From positions 1 to 13,398 of the forward strand of contig CAZMCX010000012.1 of the NCBI GenBank assembly GCA_964565125.1: a stretch of 13,398 nt of DNA. The letters are read 5' to 3'. The notes beneath the pieces are model-generated. The model saw only the letters and a program-made list of their open reading frames with translations, did no database searches and was not told the origin of the DNA. This document shows positions 263-11,062 of this stretch, piece after piece (position 1 is the first letter of the stretch; every line of letters starts with the position of its first letter). Made by a program: the position numbers and the translations under genes. The DNA comes from an uncultured archaeon (GTDB lineage: Archaea; Iainarchaeota; Iainarchaeia; Iainarchaeales; 0-14-0-20-30-16).

Positions 263-3100
263 ATGAATAAAACTGCAACTGTTATTTTATGTATAATTCT
301 ACTTCTTGTATTATCTGGGATAATAACTGGAATATACTTCCTTGTAATTAATGAAAAAACAAAGGACCAAGGATACATTTTTAACTTTAATGACGGAACT
401 TTTACAAAAAAAATCACTTCCGATGAAGTTACAGCTGAACTCATGAAATTAGATAAAGCCCAAGACTATTTTCTAGTTGTTTTCACCCCAAAAGACTCAA
501 AACTAATAACAAATAATGCAACTCTGACTTTAGAAAAAGGAATATATCTGATAGCAACAAATGATGCTTTTGAAATAAAACTAGAATATAATTCAAAAAG
601 TTGTGGATTATATTTCCCTGTAAAAATATCACATTACAATGATTTTTCTGAGGACGAAAAAGCAGAATTAATTAGCAGTATAAAAGCACAATATTATCCA
701 GAACTAGATTGTGATTTAGTTAATATTTTTGAAAAAAGCATTATGACAGAACTAAATAATGCAATTGCAAAAGGAGAACTAAAAACCGTAAAAAAGATAA
801 ACATTGTTTATTTTGAAGAAAAAAAATCTGTTTGGGATAAATATTACAAAAAGGCAATAAACTATGCAAAAGAAGAAATTGAAAAAGAAAAAGTAAAAAA
901 ACAGTATAGTAATATTAAGCTATCAATAACAATGGCTGTAGATAAAACAAAAATAGACCCAAGAATAGAAGAGTTTAAAATAAAGATAATATCAAACAAA
1001 CCTCTTTTTGAAGACGACTACAAATTAGAAGCAGAGGATATTGCTACTGCACAAAGATATCCAATAAAAACAGAGCAGACAGTAACTCAAGGCAGCAGCT
1101 TTATTGCAAATGTGATTTGGGATGGCAGTATAACTAAATTGTCCGGCCAAAAATACAAAAATGCAAACTTTAGTTTAAAAGTAATGGACAGTAAGTCAAA
1201 GAACGTACTTGCAAATCAAACAATAACCACCGAAATAGGAGAACTCTATTCAGAAGCATACAATTATGATGACTTAGAATCTGCAATTCCTACAGAAAAA
1301 TATTCTATATTAGAATTATTTAACCACGAATCAAAAAAAGTTCCACTTATTTTTAAAGATAAACAATTAGACACACCACAAATTTCAGCAAGTAATCCGA
1401 GCATAACAGTAACCTTAAAACCAACATATCAGATATGTTCTGACTGTTTAGAAATTTACAACCCAACTAGTATCGAACAAAACGTTGTAGACTTGTTAGA
1501 TAAATTATATTTCTTAGATAACATTGATAACCTATTTTTAATAGAGCAAGGCGTTTTTGAGAAAAGCCTTAACCAAAAACAAATTTCCACATTAAAGACT
1601 TTAATTGATAAAAAAATAATTTATTTAGGCCAGCCATATATTGCAACTATAACACCAGAGTTTATAGAAAACACAGAATTAATAAATGAGTCCAAACTGG
1701 TTGGTAACTTTTTTGAGAAAAAAGAAATAATAATAAACACCCTACTTATTAGCGATAAGTTAGGATTACGAGAAGCAATTACAAAAATACAAAGTTTTGC
1801 AAACACAGGCCAAAAATTTCAAGTTCTTGCAGAAATAGCAGACAAAATACGTGCAGAAAAACAATCTTCTGGATCCACAACCAATTCTTTAGGGATGGCT
1901 TATGATATTACTGCCAGCGATTATATTTATGCTTTAAAGAATCACAAAATAAGCTGTATTTCAGGAGGCATAATAATTGCAAGAACAATAGATTATATTC
2001 TAAAAAAATCAGGAGAACAAAATTATTCTGTGTCCTTAGTAGATGTAGAAGGGGCCGGAGAATTTTGGGAGGGGGCATACAAAGGCGCACACATAATAAC
2101 AAAAGTTGTTCTAAATCACGTAATACAATACTTTGACGCAACAAATACAACTAACCTTAGCCATCTACTAATTATAACCCCTACGAATAAAAAATATCAA
2201 CTAAAGGCAAATGACTCTGCAAGCACAATATACAGAACAAGCACAGAACATAGTATAGAAGATGCAGAAACTCTGTCAAAAACACAGCACAAAGTAATAA
2301 ATGGCCAAGCATTAACAACCCAAGAAATAAAAAATATCCCTATTGACTTTTTGCCTATTATTCTTTCACTTTATAGCCAATCAAATCAAAATCCGCAAGT
2401 TTATTCAATATTACAAAGCAGAGGAATCACAACAACAGCAAACTTAAAACAAATGCAAAATATTTATACACAATTAAAGTTGAATTCAGCTATTTTAACA
2501 TATTCTCATAATACAAAGTCAGAAATACCAAGCTCATTTGCTATAAATCAGCACAACATTTATCTAAACCTATACAAACAAGATCCAGACCTATATAATA
2601 ATATCAATCTTCTTGGGCTTTTGACCCCAAACATCATTGCATATAATAAAATAAAATTAGAAAAAAATATTGATTCAGACAGGATTTGGTTTACAGTATT
2701 AAAAACAATTACTCAATTCCCAATAAACACCACAATAATAACTGAAAAGCAATTATCAGATGCACACAAAATTATTTTCTCCTTTCCTTTCTGTATAGGA
2801 ATTTGTGATCCGGAAAAACAAGAAATAAATCAATATTCATATTTATCGCTTGGGTTTGCAGCACTAAGATACCGGATGTATTATTTAAATAAAAACAATG
2901 CTACTGAAGCTAATTCCTTAAAAACAATAATTACAGAGGCAGTAGATTATATTGATTCAAAACTAAATCCCAACTTTAAACAAAAATTTGAAAATCCAGT
3001 TATAATGTATCCACCTGGGGCAGATGACAAAACAAAGGAAATTGCAAAAACGGGCGAACAGGTGGGTATATATGCATCAGAAGTAAATAAAACTGTTTAA
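263..3100 (+). CDS. Large membrane-anchored (N-terminal signal-anchor) protein with a putative transglutaminase-like/papain-like cysteine protease core; otherwise unknown function
   Basis: Uninterrupted 945-aa ORF with ATG start and a TATA-like GATATAAAAAA about 28 nt upstream. There is one hydrophobic helix at aa 6-29 (TVILCIILLLVLSGIITGIYFLVI). The motif string HKIS-C565-ISGG...(45 aa)...GA-H610-IITKVVL...YF-D625-ATN resembles the Cys/His/Asp spacing and context of transglutaminase-core proteins (G-x-C ... H-a-W-x-E-V ... F-D-P-T). The rest is Lys/Asn/Ile-rich with no motif I recognise. Confidence 0.8.
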   Translation: MNKTATVILCIILLLVLSGIITGIYFLVINEKTKDQGYIFNFNDGTFTKKITSDEVTAELMKLDKAQDYFLVVFTPKDSKLITNNATLTLEKGIYLIATNDAFEIKLEYNSKSCGLYFPVKISHYNDFSEDEKAELISSIKAQYYPELDCDLVNIFEKSIMTELNNAIAKGELKTVKKINIVYFEEKKSVWDKYYKKAINYAKEEIEKEKVKKQYSNIKLSITMAVDKTKIDPRIEEFKIKIISNKPLFEDDYKLEAEDIATAQRYPIKTEQTVTQGSSFIANVIWDGSITKLSGQKYKNANFSLKVMDSKSKNVLANQTITTEIGELYSEAYNYDDLESAIPTEKYSILELFNHESKKVPLIFKDKQLDTPQISASNPSITVTLKPTYQICSDCLEIYNPTSIEQNVVDLLDKLYFLDNIDNLFLIEQGVFEKSLNQKQISTLKTLIDKKIIYLGQPYIATITPEFIENTELINESKLVGNFFEKKEIIINTLLISDKLGLREAITKIQSFANTGQKFQVLAEIADKIRAEKQSSGSTTNSLGMAYDITASDYIYALKNHKISCISGGIIIARTIDYILKKSGEQNYSVSLVDVEGAGEFWEGAYKGAHIITKVVLNHVIQYFDATNTTNLSHLLIITPTNKKYQLKANDSASTIYRTSTEHSIEDAETLSKTQHKVINGQALTTQEIKNIPIDFLPIILSLYSQSNQNPQVYSILQSRGITTTANLKQMQNIYTQLKLNSAILTYSHNTKSEIPSSFAINQHNIYLNLYKQDPDLYNNINLLGLLTPNIIAYNKIKLEKNIDSDRIWFTVLKTITQFPINTTIITEKQLSDAHKIIFSFPFCIGICDPEKQEINQYSYLSLGFAALRYRMYYLNKNNATEANSLKTIITEAVDYIDSKLNPNFKQKFENPVIMYPPGADDKTKEIAKTGEQVGIYASEVNKTV

Positions 3101-3642: not shown

Positions 3643-5052
3643 ATGTTTACCCCTATAAAAGACAAAAATCATTACATTATCAAAAAAACTAAAGATATGA
3701 ACACTGACGTTATTCTCTATTTATCAGAAAACCTAATGAAAGGGGTAGAACAAGATGCAGTCCAGCAAATTATTAATGTTGCTTCTCTTCCAGGAATAAA
3801 AGACAGAGCTTACGCTATGCCAGATATGCATTCCGGATATGGATTTCCAATTGGCGGAGTAGCAGGTTTTGATTTAGAAAAAGGAATTGTAAGTCCTGGG
3901 GGACTTGGGTTTGATATAAACTGCGGTATCAGATTAGTAAAAACAAATTCCACAAAAGAAGAATTCGAAAAACTATTTTCTAAAAAAGAATTCGAAAAGT
4001 TATTTAGGTCCATACCTACAGGTGTTGGGTCAGAAAATAAAGAAAGAATAACAAAAGAAGAATTACTGGATATGCTTTCAAAGGGTATTGATTATTCAAT
4101 AAAAAATGGAGAAGCCACAAAAAAAGATAAAGACTGTGTTGAAGATTATGGAAAACTAAAAACATCCGCAGAATTTTTGTCTCAAAAAGCAATCTCAAGA
4201 GGATTAAAACAATCCGGAACTCTTGGAAGTGGAAACCATTTCATAGAACTACAGTACATTGACAAAATTTACAACAAAGAACTAGCGAAAAAGTGGGGCT
4301 TAAAAGAAAATCAAATAACTTTCATGATACATTCCGGCTCACGCGGTTTAGGACATCAAATCGCATCAGATCATATTGAAATATTTTTAAAAAATTATCA
4401 AAAATATAACCTAAAATTACTTGACAAAGATTTGGTATCAATTCCTATAAACTCACAAGAAGGAGAAAAATACCTTGACTCAATGAGGGCAGCAGCAAAT
4501 TATGCTTACGTAAACAGGCAGGTAATGACTTTCAAGGTAAGAGAAGCCCTAAAAGAACTTGGAATAAACACAGAATTAGTTTATGATGTTGCACACAATA
4601 TTGCAAAAGAAGAAGAATACAAAATAAATGGAAAAAAAGAGAAATTATTAGTGCATAGAAAAGGTGCAACAAGGGCATTTTCTGCAGGAAATAAAGTTCT
4701 TCCTGAGAAATATATTAACACAGGCCAGCCAGTAATAATTCCTGGAAGCATGGGAACTTGTTCTTATGTTTTAGTTGGAGATAAAGCTGAAGAAAAAAGC
4801 CTAGGAAGTGTTTCACACGGCGCAGGCAGGGCATTAAGCAGAAGTGCAGCAAAAAAGCAATTTGATGTTAAGGACGTCATAAAAGATTTGAGCAAAATAA
4901 ATGTTTCGGTTTTATCTGCAACAAATGCAAGCATTGTAGAAGAAGCACCACTTGCATACAAAGATGTTAACGAAGTTGTTAAGGTTTTAGAATTAAATGA
5001 ATTAGCAAAACCTGTTGCAAGAATGAAACCACTTTACACTATTAAAGGATGA
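3643..5052 (+). CDS. rtcB: RtcB RNA 3'-phosphate/tRNA-splicing ligase
   Basis: Hallmark RtcB motifs: MPDMHSGYGFPIGGV, GFDINCGIRL, GSGNHFIE, HSGSRGLGHQIA, VAHNIAKEE, HRKGATRAF, PGSMGTCSYVL, SHGAGRALSR, EEAPLAYKDV. The length (469 aa) is typical. Confidence 0.95.
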   Translation: MFTPIKDKNHYIIKKTKDMNTDVILYLSENLMKGVEQDAVQQIINVASLPGIKDRAYAMPDMHSGYGFPIGGVAGFDLEKGIVSPGGLGFDINCGIRLVKTNSTKEEFEKLFSKKEFEKLFRSIPTGVGSENKERITKEELLDMLSKGIDYSIKNGEATKKDKDCVEDYGKLKTSAEFLSQKAISRGLKQSGTLGSGNHFIELQYIDKIYNKELAKKWGLKENQITFMIHSGSRGLGHQIASDHIEIFLKNYQKYNLKLLDKDLVSIPINSQEGEKYLDSMRAAANYAYVNRQVMTFKVREALKELGINTELVYDVAHNIAKEEEYKINGKKEKLLVHRKGATRAFSAGNKVLPEKYINTGQPVIIPGSMGTCSYVLVGDKAEEKSLGSVSHGAGRALSRSAAKKQFDVKDVIKDLSKINVSVLSATNASIVEEAPLAYKDVNEVVKVLELNELAKPVARMKPLYTIKG

Positions 5053-5726
5053 TGATTTTTATGTACTTATGTGGAATAGATGAGGCGGGAAGAGGGCCAG
5101 TAATTGGGCCAATGGTTATGTGTGCCTGTGTAATCGATGCAAAATATGAAAAAGAGTTAAAAAGTTTGGGGGTAAAAGATTCAAAAAAACTAACTCCAAA
5201 ACAAAGAGAGGATTTGTATCCACAAGTGAAAAAAATGTGCAAATACTTTGTTGAAATAATTCCTGCAACACTTATAGATTCCACAAACAAAGATAAAATA
5301 AATCTAAACAAATTAGAGGAACTAACAACAGCCAAATTAATTCAAAAAACAAAAGAGTTTTGCAAAGGCGAAGAACTAAAAATCTACGTTGATGCACCAG
5401 ACATTAATTTTACAAGATATGGAAATGTTTTGTCACAAATCACAAACACAAATGTAATTGCGGAACATAAAGCAGATGATAAATATCCAATTGTTTCCGC
5501 AGCATCAATTATTGCAAAGGTTGACAGAGATGCAGAAATAAAAAGAATCAAAGAAGAAACAGGCATAGAGCTGGGCAGTGGTTATCCTGCAGATCCAATT
5601 ACCAAGAAGGCTTTAGAACAGTTAATAAAAAGCAAAAGCAAATACATCCGTTACTCTTGGGAAACCACAAAGACAATTATTAATAAATTAGAGAACAGCA
5701 AAGGAATACAAAGCAAACTAGTTTAA
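5049..5726 (+). CDS. rnhB: Ribonuclease HII
   Basis: Motifs GIDEAGRGPVIGPMV, DSKKLTPKQRE, DDKYPIVSAASIIAKVDRD and GSGYPADP are typical of type 2 RNase H. The ATG at 5049 overlaps the rtcB TGA (ATGA). ATGs at 5052 or 5061 (MYLCGIDEAGRG) are alternative starts. Confidence 0.9.
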   Translation: MMIFMYLCGIDEAGRGPVIGPMVMCACVIDAKYEKELKSLGVKDSKKLTPKQREDLYPQVKKMCKYFVEIIPATLIDSTNKDKINLNKLEELTTAKLIQKTKEFCKGEELKIYVDAPDINFTRYGNVLSQITNTNVIAEHKADDKYPIVSAASIIAKVDRDAEIKRIKEETGIELGSGYPADPITKKALEQLIKSKSKYIRYSWETTKTIINKLENSKGIQSKLV

Positions 5727-6602: not shown

Positions 6603-6830
6603 ATGAGCTATACTACAATACAGGTAGAAGATACAGTGGTGGAACTTTTAAAAAGCATAAAAGAATACCCAAAACAATCATATAATGAAATAATCAAAAA
6701 AGTGTTTGGAGCTTATGTAAAAAATTTACAAAAAGGGGATCAGTACAACAAATTTTTACATTACATACAACAAGCAAAAATGAAAGAATTATGGGACAAT
6801 AAAGCAGATGAGGATTGGGACAATGTATAA
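6603..6830 (+). CDS. Putative antitoxin (ribbon-helix-helix/COG1753 VapB-like N-terminus, acidic Trp-containing C-terminal tail)
   Basis: The N-terminus TTIQVEDTVVELLKSIKEYPKQSYNEIIKKVF resembles the archaeal T-I-x-V-x-x-E-x-x-x-x-L-x-x-x-K...S-(F/Y)-(S/N)-(D/E)-V-I pattern of small CopG-like antitoxins. The C-terminus ELWDNKADEDWDNV is acidic with Trp, as in MazE-type toxin-binding tails. The gene overlaps the downstream toxin gene by 8 nt. Confidence 0.6.
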   Translation: MSYTTIQVEDTVVELLKSIKEYPKQSYNEIIKKVFGAYVKNLQKGDQYNKFLHYIQQAKMKELWDNKADEDWDNV

Positions 6831-7140
6831 ACCTGGTGACGTTATTTTAACATATGTACAATTTGCTGATTCTTTTGAAATAAAAAAACGCCCGGCAGTA
6901 GTTTTATTTTCAGAAGCAGACAATTTTATTGTTGCAGGAATAACAAGCAACAAACTTAGAACTGGAATACCGGTGACAATAAAAGAAGGGGCGATAAAAG
7001 ACTCTGTTATTAGAATTGATTATATCTATACAGTAAGTCAAAAAATAATTGACAAAAAATTATTTACCCTCACAAAAGAAAAAAAAGAACTACTTTTTAA
7101 AGAATTGAATAATAAAATTTCGGAGTTACTTAGCTGTTAG
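6823..7140 (+). CDS. MazF/PemK-family endoribonuclease toxin
   Basis: YKPGDVILTYVQFADSFEIKKRPAVVLFSE..NFIVAGITSN...KDSVIRIDYIYTVSQKIIDKKLFTLTKEKKELLFKEL parallels the PemK/MazF pattern (K-R-G-D-V...G-x-E-x-x-K-x-R-P-x-V-V...I-V-x-P-I-T-S...D-S-V-I-x-x-x-Q-I-R-T-I-D). The ATG at 6823 is preferred over 6808 because GAGGA lies 8 nt upstream and the overlap with the antitoxin stop is typical. Confidence 0.8.
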   Translation: MYKPGDVILTYVQFADSFEIKKRPAVVLFSEADNFIVAGITSNKLRTGIPVTIKEGAIKDSVIRIDYIYTVSQKIIDKKLFTLTKEKKELLFKELNNKISELLSC

Positions 7141-7603: not shown

Positions 7604-7663
7604 ATAATTACCCCCCAATATCAATACTAATTATAAAAGTAGATACCCTTTTAAAATTATATC

Positions 7664-9715
7664 ATGTGTGGAATAGCAGGGATTATAGACAGAAAAGATA
7701 AGAAAACTGTGAAGGAAATGCTTTTTGTGCTAAAACACAGAGGCCCAGATTCTTCAAAAGTCGTTTCTTGGAATAATCTTACCTTCGGACAAAACTTGCT
7801 TGCTATTATTGACAATATCCCACAACCAATTTATGACAAAGATTCAATTCTAGTTGCTAATTGTGAAATTTACAATTGGGAAGAATTAAATAAGAAATAC
7901 AAACTAAATGCAAAAAATGATGCTGAATTGTTATTCAAAATCTTAAAGAAAAGAGGAGTAGAAGCAATTAAAGAATTAGATGGAGATTTTGCATTTGTAT
8001 TTACTGACAAAAACAAGGCAATATTAGCAAGAGATTTTTTTGGACTAAAACCAATTTGGTATTCGAATACAAAAAAAGGGTTTTATTTTGCATCTGAAAA
8101 AAAGGCATTACCAAAGTTTGCACAAGAAACGGCACAAGATTTACATCCAAGAAATATTTTAGAATATAATTTTAAAACAAAAAAAACAACCACACATTTT
8201 ATTGATTTTTACAAAGAATTGGAGTACAAAACAAAACAAGGTATAAAAAAAGAACGAATTAAAAAAGACCTTACTTGCCTACTTGAACAAGCAGTAAAAA
8301 AAAGAGTAAACACAAATAAAAAAATTGGAATACTTCTATCTGGTGGAGTAGATTCTAGCATTATAACCGCAATCGCCAAGAAATATAATAAAAATATTAC
8401 TTGCTATGTTGCATCTGCACTAACAAAAAGCGAGGATGAAAAATACGCAGAGATCGTTGCAAAATATTTGGGACTAAAATTAAAAAAAATAATTGCAACA
8501 GAAAAAGAAATTCTAAAAGCACTACCAGAAATAATAAAAATCCTTGAAACATCAGACCCTGTAAAAATAGGGGTTGCATTGCCATTTTATTTCTGCACAA
8601 AAGAAGCAAAGAAAGATGGAATTAAAGTTATGCTTAGCGGATTAGGAAGTGAGGACGTTTTTATTGGATATGATAGGTATAACTCAAATAAAGATGGTTT
8701 ATATGGCCTAAAGAATATTTTCCACAGAGACCTTTACAGGGATGATTTAATTTGTATGAATAATTCTATTGAATTAAGAGTTCCTTTGCTAGACAAAGAA
8801 TTAGTAAAGTATGCAATAAATGTAGATATAAAACACAAAATAAAAGATAAAATAAAAAAATATGTCTTAAGAGAAATTGCTTTAGATTATTTACCAAAAG
8901 AGATTGCATTCCGAGCAAGAAAAGCAGCACAGTTTAGTAGTGGGTTTGATAAAGCAGTAACAAAATTAGCTAAGGACAGGCAAAAACAAAAAGGAGAATT
9001 CTATAAGAAATATATTTCAAAAAATAATGATAATGTTGGGATTCTTTTCACTGGCGGAAAAGATTCAGTTCTGACTTTAGAAATTCTAAAAAGTATGAAC
9101 TATGATATAAAATGTTTAATTACAATTGACAGCAAGAATAAAGATTCCTATATGTACCATACCCCAAATATTTCTTTGGCAAGGTTACAAGCAAAGGCTC
9201 TAGAAATTCCAATTATAGTGCTAAAAACAAAAGGAGAAAAAGAACTAGAATTAAAAGAATTAGAAAAAGCAATAAAAATCGCAAAAGAGAAATACAACAT
9301 TAATTTAATTGCAAGCGGGGCAATATTTTCAGAATATCAAAGAGACAGAATAGAAATAATTGCCGAAAGATTAGGCTTAAAATGTTTGGCGCCTTTGTGG
9401 CATAAAAATCAGGAGCAAGAGGTTACAGAACTTATCAGCAGAGGAATAAAAGCAATAATAACAAGGATTTGTGCACACGGCCTAAACCAAGACGATCTTG
9501 GAAAAGAGATTGACAAAAAAATGCTTGAAAATCTCAAAAAAATAAATGAACGGCTTGGATTTAACATTGCTGGAGAAGGTGGAGAATATGAATCTTTTGT
9601 TTTAGACTCCCCAAGTTTCAAGAAGACAATAAATATAGTAAAATCAACAAAAAGTTCTAATGGAGAATATAATCACACCCTTACCATTGAAAAAGTGGAA
9701 CTAAAAGAAAAGTGA
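7664..9715 (+). CDS. Fusion protein: AsnB-type class II glutamine amidotransferase plus asparagine-synthetase-like PP-loop domain (aa 1-~455), fused to a Dph6/MJ0570-type diphthine-ammonia-ligase-like ATP pyrophosphatase domain (aa ~458-683)
   Basis: The N-terminus is MCGIAGI (Cys2 Ntn nucleophile), followed by HRGPD, NCEIYN, DGDFAFVF, RDFFGLKPIWY and FASEKKAL. The first PP-loop is LLSGGVDSS (nt 8339-8359), followed by ELRVPLLDKELV and KYVLREIA...LPKEIAFRARKA. Then comes a second PP-loop, GILFTGGKDS (nt 9050-9067), with SYMYHTPN, SGAIFSEYQRDRIE, LAPLWH and GEGGEYESFVLDSPSF, which match the MJ0570/Dph6 family. It is a single continuous frame with no internal start at the junction. Confidence 0.85.
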   Translation: MCGIAGIIDRKDKKTVKEMLFVLKHRGPDSSKVVSWNNLTFGQNLLAIIDNIPQPIYDKDSILVANCEIYNWEELNKKYKLNAKNDAELLFKILKKRGVEAIKELDGDFAFVFTDKNKAILARDFFGLKPIWYSNTKKGFYFASEKKALPKFAQETAQDLHPRNILEYNFKTKKTTTHFIDFYKELEYKTKQGIKKERIKKDLTCLLEQAVKKRVNTNKKIGILLSGGVDSSIITAIAKKYNKNITCYVASALTKSEDEKYAEIVAKYLGLKLKKIIATEKEILKALPEIIKILETSDPVKIGVALPFYFCTKEAKKDGIKVMLSGLGSEDVFIGYDRYNSNKDGLYGLKNIFHRDLYRDDLICMNNSIELRVPLLDKELVKYAINVDIKHKIKDKIKKYVLREIALDYLPKEIAFRARKAAQFSSGFDKAVTKLAKDRQKQKGEFYKKYISKNNDNVGILFTGGKDSVLTLEILKSMNYDIKCLITIDSKNKDSYMYHTPNISLARLQAKALEIPIIVLKTKGEKELELKELEKAIKIAKEKYNINLIASGAIFSEYQRDRIEIIAERLGLKCLAPLWHKNQEQEVTELISRGIKAIITRICAHGLNQDDLGKEIDKKMLENLKKINERLGFNIAGEGGEYESFVLDSPSFKKTINIVKSTKSSNGEYNHTLTIEKVELKEK

Positions 9716-9777: not shown

Positions 9778-10236
9778 ATGGACAAAAAGAATCTTTATTC
9801 AACAATAATACTTATTTTGCTAGTAGTAGTAATTGTAATTCTAATGGTGCTTTCAAGTAAGCCAAATAACAACAACCAAAATACAAACTCAGACAGCAAT
9901 GTATTAAAGACTTTTTTTATAAACAAAGATGGCCCAATCCCCCCTGCAAACTGTGAAGCTGCGGACGGAAACAATAAAATAATTATTATTGAATCAAAAT
10001 ATTGTAGTGCCTGCAAAGAATTCTTAAAAACATTGGATAACTTAAAAGACAGCCCATACATTTTCCATTTATATGATATAACAGAATCAGAAAAAAGAGA
10101 TTTTATTGAAAATACTCTGAAAGTAGATGCCCAATATTATCCTACAAGCATCATTGGATGTGATGCTTACATTGGGGCAATGGACGAAAATACTCTATTA
10201 GAAGTATTAAGCACTTATGAATTAGAACAAAAGTGA
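9778..10236 (+). CDS. Membrane-anchored thioredoxin/glutaredoxin-fold protein with CxxC active site
   Basis: N-terminal TM anchor (STIILILLVVVIVILMVLS), an Asn-rich linker, then KIIIIESKY-C76-SA-C79-KEFL...YPTSIIGCDAYIG (cis-Pro YPT), which is the classical Trx/Grx fold order. The gene ends 4 nt before the next gene. Confidence 0.75.
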   Translation: MDKKNLYSTIILILLVVVIVILMVLSSKPNNNNQNTNSDSNVLKTFFINKDGPIPPANCEAADGNNKIIIIESKYCSACKEFLKTLDNLKDSPYIFHLYDITESEKRDFIENTLKVDAQYYPTSIIGCDAYIGAMDENTLLEVLSTYELEQK

Positions 10237-10240
10237 TATT

Positions 10241-11062
10241 ATGACCCCCAACAAAAAAAGACTAATAATAAGCATTAGCCTACTTGTTGGAATTATTCTT
10301 ATTTTCATAATTTTGAGTTTAATAAACCAAGACTCAATAAAGAATTTCGCAGGCTCATTACCTTTGCCAATTTTAACTGTTTTTGTTGGACTTTTAGATG
10401 GGTTTAACCCTTGCACCTTTTTTGTATTTGGCTTAATTCTAAGTCTACTAGTTTCAGTTTCTGACTCCAGAAAAAAAATGCTTGCAGTCTCATTATCTTT
10501 CATTATTGTTGTTTTTGTAATATACTTTCTTTTTATGTCTGCTTGGCTCACAATGCTAAGTATAATTGGATTTATGGACATCTTAAGAATTATTGTTGGC
10601 ATTATTGCAATAATTGCAGGACTAATAAACTGGAAAGAGTTTATTTGGTTTAGAAAAGGCATAACCTTAATGATACAAGATAAAGACAAAACAAAAGTAA
10701 CTAGAAAAATACAAAATTTAAAAGATAAGATAACTTCTGGAACAATACTAAGTCTTATTGGTGCAAGCATATTTTTAGCGTTGTTTACATCCTTGATTGA
10801 AATCCCCTGCACAGTTGGACTGCCTCTAATTTATACCACAATTTTAGCACAAAACGCCTTTGGATTCTCACATTATTTTTACATATTACTTTACTGCTTA
10901 ATTTATGTAATTCCACTACTTGCAATTTCTGGGTGGTTTATCTATTCTTTCAAAGAAAAAACAATTTCAAAGAAGCAAATGCAGTGGATAAAGCTAATTA
11001 CTGGGCTTATAATGATAGTATTGGGTATTATCATATTATTTTGGCCTGGGCTACTTATATAA
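10241..11062 (+). CDS. Polytopic membrane protein, CcdA/DsbD-like thiol-disulfide electron transporter (putative)
   Basis: About 7 predicted TM helices. Two intramembrane Pro-Cys motifs (GFNP-C58-TFFVFG and EIP-C190-TVGLPL) are spaced as in the two pseudo-repeats of CcdA/DsbD. It is adjacent to and co-oriented with a CxxC thioredoxin-fold gene. Confidence 0.55.
   Translation: MTPNKKRLIISISLLVGIILIFIILSLINQDSIKNFAGSLPLPILTVFVGLLDGFNPCTFFVFGLILSLLVSVSDSRKKMLAVSLSFIIVVFVIYFLFMSAWLTMLSIIGFMDILRIIVGIIAIIAGLINWKEFIWFRKGITLMIQDKDKTKVTRKIQNLKDKITSGTILSLIGASIFLALFTSLIEIPCTVGLPLIYTTILAQNAFGFSHYFYILLYCLIYVIPLLAISGWFIYSFKEKTISKKQMQWIKLITGLIMIVLGIIILFWPGLLI

Follow-up and report, generated by a model that had tools for sequence, protein, structure and literature searches.

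A probable Dph6 diphthamide synthetase of the AsnB-DUF71 fusion class in an uncultured iainarchaeon, with a middle domain that is not a canonical asparagine synthetase

Enzymes of the Dph6 family adenylate the carboxylate of diphthine on elongation factor 2 (EF-2), which then reacts with ammonia to give diphthamide. Here we describe a long gene of this family, the open reading frame (ORF) at 7664-9715 on the forward (+) strand of a 13,398-nucleotide stretch (contig CAZMCX010000012.1, the whole of which we call the window) from an uncultured archaeon of the Iainarchaeota. Stand-alone archaeal Dph6 proteins (PF0828/3RK1; PH1257/2D13; the MJ0570 family, TIGR03679) have in common with the window protein an SGGKDS-type PP-loop, a Tyr-Gln pair and an EGGExE signature, whereas the window protein has ~455 extra N-terminal residues made up of a glutaminase and a second PP-loop domain. 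Eukaryotic Dph6 (yeast YLR143W) instead joins a Dph6 core to two C-terminal RidA-like domains, which are proposed ammonia suppliers (PMC3541065). Closest of all is a three-domain AsnB(GAT-II + Asn_Synthase_B_C)-DUF71 fusion, with COG0367/AsnB N-terminal to DUF71, described by de Crecy-Lagard et al. 2012, Biol Direct 7:32 (PMC3541065) from Methanohalophilus mahii, Methanosalsum zhilinae and 'Ca. Nanosalinarum sp. J07AB56'. These authors proposed that both PP-loop enzymes receive NH3 from glutamine hydrolysis by the GAT-II domain; one of the paper's reviewers wished to know at which PP-loop the ammonia is used and what the AsnB-like one does, and the question was left without an answer (PMC3541065). 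Our literature searches for later work on the AsnB-DUF71 fusion found none. The best reading of ORF 7664-9715, judging from its sequence, is that it encodes this archaeon's diphthamide synthetase (Dph6) in a long three-domain form, and we think it probable, with some reserve, that the AsnB-derived part is a dedicated partner module and not an asparagine synthetase, the enzyme being glutamine-dependent in this organism.

The ORF is complete (ATG start, 683 aa plus stop, N-terminus MCGIAG), and all of its features given below lie on the + strand. It begins with a class-II N-terminal nucleophile (Ntn) glutaminase domain (residues 1-190; 7664..8233), recognized by Pfam GATase_7 (residues 53-149, 4.5e-22; jointly with GATase_6 ~38-149) and by a Foldseek match to AsnB 1ct9. 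An AsnB-derived PP-loop (N-type ATP pyrophosphatase) domain follows (residues 196-429; 8249..8950), assigned by Pfam (Asn_synthase match starting at residue 206, 1.4e-58) and by alignment to 1ct9, 6gq3 and CarA; it contains the first PP-loop, SGGVDS (residues 226-231; 8339..8356; SGGVDSS at 226-232). With the NCBIfam model TIGR01536 asn_synth_AEB (asparagine synthase, glutamine-hydrolysing) the score is 339 bits, for a cut-off of 267. Homologue conservation and AlphaFold2 then delimit a conserved helical linker (residues 430-457; 8951..9034), after which comes the Dph6 (diphthine--ammonia ligase) domain (residues 458-678; 9035..9697), identified by Diphthami_syn_2 (PF01902) over its whole length (3.3e-59, 200.5 bits against a cut-off of 23.2) and by TIGR03679 Dph6_archaeal on residues 460-677 (258.9 bits against 197.3). 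Motif reading places the second PP-loop, TGGKDS, at residues 463-468 (9050..9067), YQRDR at residues 558-562 and EGGEYE, a Dph6-type EGG(E/D)xE signature, at residues 638-643 (9575..9592). A reading of the letters and ORF translations made earlier without database searches (the sequence-only reading) had proposed this layout from motifs; the hidden Markov model (HMM) scores are strong for all three domains, PF01902 falls on the C-terminal part as expected, and every quoted motif was found in its place. AlphaFold2, run on an alignment of 118 sequences, returned a single compact model (predicted local distance difference test, pLDDT, 93.5; predicted template-modelling score, pTM, 0.90) with no low-confidence stretch across the linker. 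No solved structure with all three domains was found by PDB sequence search or Foldseek.

The single polypeptide carries first a GAT-II domain, then an Asn_synthase PP-loop domain and last a DUF71/Dph6 domain, and so belongs to the AsnB-DUF71 fusion class. It is a further member of the set described in 2012, with the same domain order and a Dph6-type C-terminus, and nothing categorical sets it apart; one of the three published examples (Ca. Nanosalinarum sp. J07AB56) comes, as does the window archaeon, from the DPANN group. The sequence-only reading had supposed the architecture undescribed, which the 2012 publication (PMC3541065) contradicts, as does the name 'diphthine--ammonia ligase' that the NCBI pipeline gives to many fusion proteins (other sources call them asparagine synthase). 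The architecture is also common in archaea. A genome survey with one genome per GTDB species yielded 591 relatives, and among the best 80 loci, which we analysed, ~65 have all three domains fused and 7 have a two-domain form, so that novelty fails on frequency and existing annotation alike. Carriers among these loci are Woese-, Nano-, Iain-, Micr- and Altiarchaeota, Methanolobus (including M. bombayensis DSM 7082), Methanomethylovorans, Methanohalophilus, Syntrophoarchaeum and the anaerobic methanotrophic (ANME) lineages ANME-3 and ANME-1/Methanophagales. The long form is widespread among DPANN archaea and occurs in several lineages of Methanosarcinales and ANME. One protein from a Heimdallarchaeota metagenome-assembled genome (MAG), found among the best 120 relatives of the Methanococcoides module discussed below, likewise has the fusion. 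DPANN-type fusion or Dph6 genes also occur on contigs labelled as Acidobacteriota, Thaumarchaeota and Peregrinibacteria MAGs (L034, L061, L076), and many DPANN-like sequences carry 'uncultured Methanosarcinales' labels; such discordant taxon labels are probably binning or labelling errors.

Fusion of two enzymes normally met apart could reflect a frameshift or a chimeric join of two genes in the assembly, and two observations lean that way: the two parts are separate genes in a few genomes, and on one 2.9-kb contig an 85%-identical module breaks off at the linker. The homologues leave this explanation a negligible probability. A search of 5.8 billion proteins gave at least 120 matches, those listed being nearly all ~675-725 aa long with 95-100% query coverage and the same Pfam set, and 118 full-length homologues were aligned. 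At least 118 full-length homologues at 44-90% identity are encoded by a single uninterrupted ORF, in independent NCBI, JGI, ENA and Logan assemblies on contigs reaching 1.3 Mb; the 90% cluster of the window protein holds 4 further 683-aa members from independent ENA assemblies of other samples, and the closest named relative is 'Candidatus Iainarchaeum' (90% identity). Finished genomes of cultured Methanolobus contain the fusion as well. Within the linker, K434, L435, K443, Y446, L447 and N455 dominate their columns (92-95% allowing K/R or Y/F), so the junction is both conserved and confidently modelled. For practical purposes a frameshift or chimera is ruled out for the fusion gene, and the junction that the sequence-only reading had flagged for checking is sound.

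Two subfamilies of DUF71 are told apart by a strictly conserved EGG(E/D)xE188 in Dph6 as against ENGE(F/Y)H in the B12-salvage proteins, and the residues of Dph6 at the EF-2 interface include Tyr103/Gln104 (PMC3541065). The EGGEYE signature, together with the TIGR03679 score above cut-off, places the C-terminal part of the window protein in the Dph6 and not the B12-type subfamily, as the sequence-only reading had it. Tyr558/Gln559 and the signature residues E638, G639, G640, E641 and E643 are invariant (118/118 homologues), as are G465, K466 and D467 of the second PP-loop. Residues 457-663 match Pyrococcus PH1257 (4.5e-51) and PF0828 (8e-45) in the PDB sequence search, and the modelled domain superposes on 3rk1 (PF0828) with a template-modelling (TM) score of 0.95 and a root-mean-square deviation (rmsd) of 1.3 A in Foldseek. 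Where Pyrococcus Dph6 has Glu and Pro, the fusion set has invariant His580 and Gln583. The dph genes are generally present in DPANN genomes. Table S1 of the 2012 study gives a single DUF71 homologue each for M. mahii, M. zhilinae and Methanococcoides burtonii (PMC3541065), so the fused or adjacent copy is the sole Dph6 of these organisms.

The domain between glutaminase and linker is a different matter. It had been read as part of a full AsnB-type synthetase, and the resemblance is real: residues 13-429 match E. coli AsnB 1CT9 at 7.5e-43 (Foldseek TM 0.78, rmsd 3.0 A, about 465 columns), and the window protein shares with E. coli AsnB (1CT9) and human ASNS (6GQ3) the two-domain fold, the N-terminal Cys nucleophile, SGGxDS, an acidic side chain where Asp351/Asp367 stands and a basic one close to Lys449/Lys466. 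The alignment ends, however, at residue 457 of the 553 in E. coli AsnB, leaving ~95 C-terminal residues absent, and the SGEGSDE of the E. coli and human enzymes is SGLGSED here (residues 325-331; 8636..8656), with Leu327 at the Glu348/Glu364 position. That position is Leu in 104 of the 118 fusion proteins, Asn in 11 and Thr, Val or Gln in 1 each; it is L/S/N/T/V/I/M/A in ~75 genome loci, and never Glu or Asp in about 190 family sequences. Known asparagine synthetases share the residue numbered Glu-364 in the human and Glu348 in the E. coli enzyme, which is needed for beta-aspartyl-AMP formation; human ASNS with E364A or E364Q has no activity even when ammonium chloride is supplied (PMC6748925). 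Alignment with the E. coli and human enzymes further places Val-Lys-Ile-Gly (residues 300-303; 8561..8572) at the site of Thr-Thr-(Ile/Val)-Arg, a segment to which a part in Asp/beta-aspartyl-AMP chemistry has been ascribed; Lys301 does not vary across the 118 proteins. Lys449 of E. coli and Lys466 of the human enzyme, the catalytic Lys, align, with a 2-residue insertion, to Arg417, and basic residues are conserved near this site (R417 in 117/118; position 419 Lys in 111 and Arg in 7).

These substitutions bear on one account of the fusion, an ordinary glutamine-dependent asparagine synthetase joined to Dph6 by chance or for co-regulation, the two activities remaining independent. Such an account would explain the TIGR01536 score above its cut-off, the intact glutaminase residues and PP-loop, and the asparagine synthase label on some family members. 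We nevertheless judge it improbable: the required Glu is Leu and never acidic in the family, Thr-Thr-(Ile/Val)-Arg is replaced, the AsnB equivalog PRK09431 scores 306 bits, under its cut-off of 499, the glutaminase is dead in several lineages, and no module away from Dph6 appears among the best matches. The middle domain is thus not a canonical asparagine synthetase, as far as its residues tell, and the description as a full AsnB-type synthetase has to be withdrawn. Carbapenam synthetase CarA has Tyr at the Glu348/364 position (TGYGSD) and adenylates its substrate all the same, so that loss of the Glu argues against asparagine synthesis but not against all catalysis. The domain is in any case strongly constrained. 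In the 118-protein set SGGxDS, Glu/Asp330, Tyr358-Arg-Asp-Asp361, Glu370-x-Arg372-x-Pro374, Arg417, position 419 (K/R), Ala421 and Gln423 are invariant or nearly so, and almost every lineage retains the first PP-loop, with SAGxDS or SGNDS in a few.

The proposed glutamine dependence in the window archaeon rests on the N-terminal domain, in which Cys2, Arg26, Asn66-Cys67-Glu68 and Asp106 are all present. The glutamine-site residues of E. coli AsnB are Arg49, Asn74, Glu76 and Asp98. C2, R26, N66 and E68 are invariant (118/118) and position 106 is D/N; the Asn-Gly-Glu of AsnB/ASNS is Asn-Cys-Glu in the window protein, and the corresponding change from E. coli Gly75 to Cys67 occurs in 116 of the 118 fusion proteins. 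Cys2, Arg26, Asn66 and Glu68 are likewise kept in all DPANN, Methanolobus, Methanomethylovorans and Methanohalobium versions. Because the glutaminase residues are intact here, ammonia most likely comes from glutamine. In the mechanism we favour, the glutaminase of this DPANN protein would release ammonia from glutamine, the ammonia would pass through the AsnB-derived domain to the Dph6 site, and the C-terminal domain would adenylate the diphthine carboxylate on EF-2 for ammonia to complete diphthamide. Leu in place of Glu at the mouth of the AsnB tunnel would suit a conduit better than a reaction chamber, and the pTM of 0.90 and the conserved linker support a rigid assembly. Since its nucleotide-binding residues are kept and the Glu is lost, the middle PP-loop domain probably serves as an ATP-binding relay, gate or scaffold, or else runs a second reaction.

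Several observations weigh against ammonia supply as a sufficient account of the fusion. Stand-alone Dph6 is enough in most archaea and in yeast. In other lineages the glutaminase is inactivated with its fold retained: Cys2 is replaced by T/Y/S/Q/G/R, Asn66 by Asp, and Arg26 is lost. The altered N-termini include MTRILG, MYRITG, MSRITG, MQKLIS, MGRIAG and MRGGER, and other proteins keep Cys2 and lose Arg26 and Asn66. Dead glutaminases occur in Methanophagales/ANME-1, Methanospirareceae, Syntrophoarchaeum, Methanohalophilus sp. RSK and Methanococcoides, for which the N-terminal ~190 residues of L048, L052, L054, L058, L053, L074, L051, L056 and L060 stand as examples, and also in two 'Halobacteria' MAGs. 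In 7 of the 80 loci (L059, L062-L067) there is no glutaminase domain at all, the 477-523-aa proteins starting just before the first PP-loop (for example AsnB-like PP-loop plus Dph6 at L063 9983-11485). No tblastn match to the glutaminase domain was found in the flanks of these seven loci (<=10 kb per side), and inspection, with no HMM scan of the neighbours, revealed no recurrent or glutaminase-like neighbour there. Because lineages with dead or deleted glutaminases keep the AsnB-like PP-loop with Dph6, ammonia supply alone fails to explain its retention. The proposal of the sequence-only reading that the glutaminase supplies the ammonia is therefore plausible for the window protein, and falls short as the whole reason for the fusion. 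The 2012 hypothesis is qualified in the same way: Methanohalophilus sp. RSK (L053) is without the Cys nucleophile, whereas DPANN and Methanolobus versions keep it. We found no mention of the glutaminase-less two-domain form in the 2012 description of the fusion.

Comparison of these forms separates what varies from what does not. The glutaminase is dispensable in several lineages, and the paired PP-loop domains are the constant feature: across all forms, with few exceptions, both PP-loops, the Dph6 catalytic residues, Arg359-Asp360, Arg417, Lys419 and Gln423 persist. Invariance of Lys301, Asp361, Glu370 and Arg372 is confined to proteins that have the glutaminase, which suggests that they may be part of glutaminase coupling or of the tunnel. 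A possible analogue for the dead-glutaminase lineages is offered by beta-lactam and carbapenam synthetases (1JGT, 1Q15; 17-20% identity), which are also AsnB-derived and have a residue other than Glu at the Glu348/364 position. Their N-terminal domain is not known to act as a glutaminase, and adenylation is retained. They differ in being secondary-metabolite enzymes that form an intramolecular amide, and in having no Dph6 partner.

The partnership also survives division into two genes. In the complete genome of Methanococcoides sp. FTZ1 an AsnB-like ORF of 502 aa ends in the linker and is overlapped there by dph6, read in a different frame; M. burtonii DSM 6242 has its dph6 start 2 nt past the AsnB-like stop; and a Methanohalobium MAG shows a 14-nt overlap between the two genes (split loci with an 'asparagine synthase-related' gene and dph6: L074 9761-11963; L082 3001-5173, 2-nt gap; L083 3001-5179, 14-nt overlap). 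Abutting or overlapping halves suggest translational coupling. Stand-alone modules of ~500 aa occur in M. burtonii, M. methylutens, M. orientis, five other Methanococcoides strains and Methanohalobium. Among the best 120 relatives of the Methanococcoides module every other full-length match is a Dph6 fusion, a few partial or unnamed short proteins being unclassified; within the matches listed, this AsnB-like subfamily is apparently tied exclusively to Dph6, fused or translationally coupled. Mean identity in the split group is 71% for the synthetase-like domain and 47% for the glutaminase-like domain, compared with 77% and 60%, respectively, in fused Methanolobus-type proteins with a live glutaminase. 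The linker is the fission point in Methanococcoides, in Methanohalobium and in the short contig mentioned above (L081). On that 2.9-kb contig the 85%-identical module (P0005, 451 aa; 1378-2733), which stands beside PIN and ribbon-helix-helix (RHH) genes, stops precisely at the linker, and the DNA that follows is unrelated. Either the fusion was split here recently or the contig is chimeric.

Conservation of the first PP-loop after loss of the glutaminase points to ATP binding or catalysis in the middle domain as essential to the partnership. The domain could thus be an active adenylating enzyme with its own substrate, taking a second step on EF-2 or elsewhere in diphthamide synthesis, or acting on another carboxylate; the fusion would then reflect a common substrate or pathway and not delivery of ammonia to Dph6. 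Retention of SGGxDS, the acidic pair after SGxG, R359-D360, R417/K419 and Q423 in nearly every lineage, including those with dead or deleted glutaminases, would follow from it, as would the stronger conservation of the synthetase-like than of the glutaminase-like domain in the split group (71% and 47%), and carbapenam synthetase, whose N-terminal domain is glutaminase-like and which has Tyr in place of the Glu, provides a precedent. Gene context, on the other hand, gives no candidate substrate, with no conserved neighbourhood in the 80 loci, and K301, D361, E370 and R372, which plausibly line the pocket or tunnel, vary after glutaminase loss, which speaks against one conserved substrate site. 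We also know of no second carboxylate-to-amide or lactam modification of archaeal EF-2, and on balance we regard an enzyme with its own substrate as rather unlikely. Dph6 with a dedicated AsnB-derived partner remains the account we prefer. A bolder reading, which we put forward tentatively as a possibility short of an expectation, is that the module is an unrecognised dedicated component of diphthamide synthesis whose middle, AsnB-type PP-loop does real ATP-dependent work, as an ATP-gated relay of ammonia to Dph6 or in a second step on EF-2. If true, this would explain why the module is retained, fused or coupled, despite a dead or deleted glutaminase.

The architecture per se thus adds nothing new, and the interest of the protein lies in the role of the ATP site in its middle domain. 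For the question raised in 2012 the residue survey narrows the field, with no standard asparagine synthetase in the middle, a dispensable glutaminase and a constant pairing of PP-loops. To conclude from fusion proteins of this kind that a reduced DPANN genome encodes asparagine biosynthesis is probably a misreading, and if the module does ATP-dependent work in diphthamide synthesis, the 'AsnB' genes of DPANN reconstructions would not be amino-acid biosynthesis genes. A 2023 analysis of cultivated-nanohaloarchaea genomes lists 'asparagine synthase AsnB' among very few amino-acid biosynthesis genes (PMC10266531); were those genes of the Glu-less, Dph6-partner type, the metabolic inference drawn there would be wrong.

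In the window (GC about 30%) the genes near the fusion encode RtcB, RNase HII, a GNAT acetyltransferase, a PemK-like toxin and TYW1. ORF clustering across the 80 loci revealed no conserved partner (commonest families <=10/80), and no dph2, dph5 or EF-2 gene lies near the fusion in these loci. The RNase HII gene (window 5049-5726), ~2 kb upstream of the fusion gene, recurs within 10 kb in 9 of the 80 related loci, weakly suggesting residual synteny. Rfam and tRNA scans of the 13.4-kb window gave no match. By sequence reading, a TATA-box-like TTATAAAA (7631..7638, +) lies 26-33 nt upstream of the fusion ATG; TTATAAAA is a possible archaeal promoter element, its spacing fitting a leaderless or short-leader mRNA.

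Other features of the window stand apart from the fusion gene. Just upstream of its region, a 75-aa ORF (6603-6830, +) shares 23 nt with the beginning of a gene for a 110-aa PemK/MazF-like toxin (6808-7140, +; PF02452, 4e-08); together they probably form a type II toxin-antitoxin pair. The gene next downstream of the fusion (9778-10236, +) encodes a membrane-anchored protein of 152 aa that contains a CSAC motif, and is followed after 5 nt by one for a 273-aa multi-pass membrane protein (10241-11062, +); neither protein has a Pfam match, and by eye they resemble a thioredoxin-like/DsbD(CcdA)-like disulfide-relay pair. The 945-aa product of 263-3100 (+), which has an N-terminal hydrophobic segment and no Pfam match, is possibly a DPANN surface protein.

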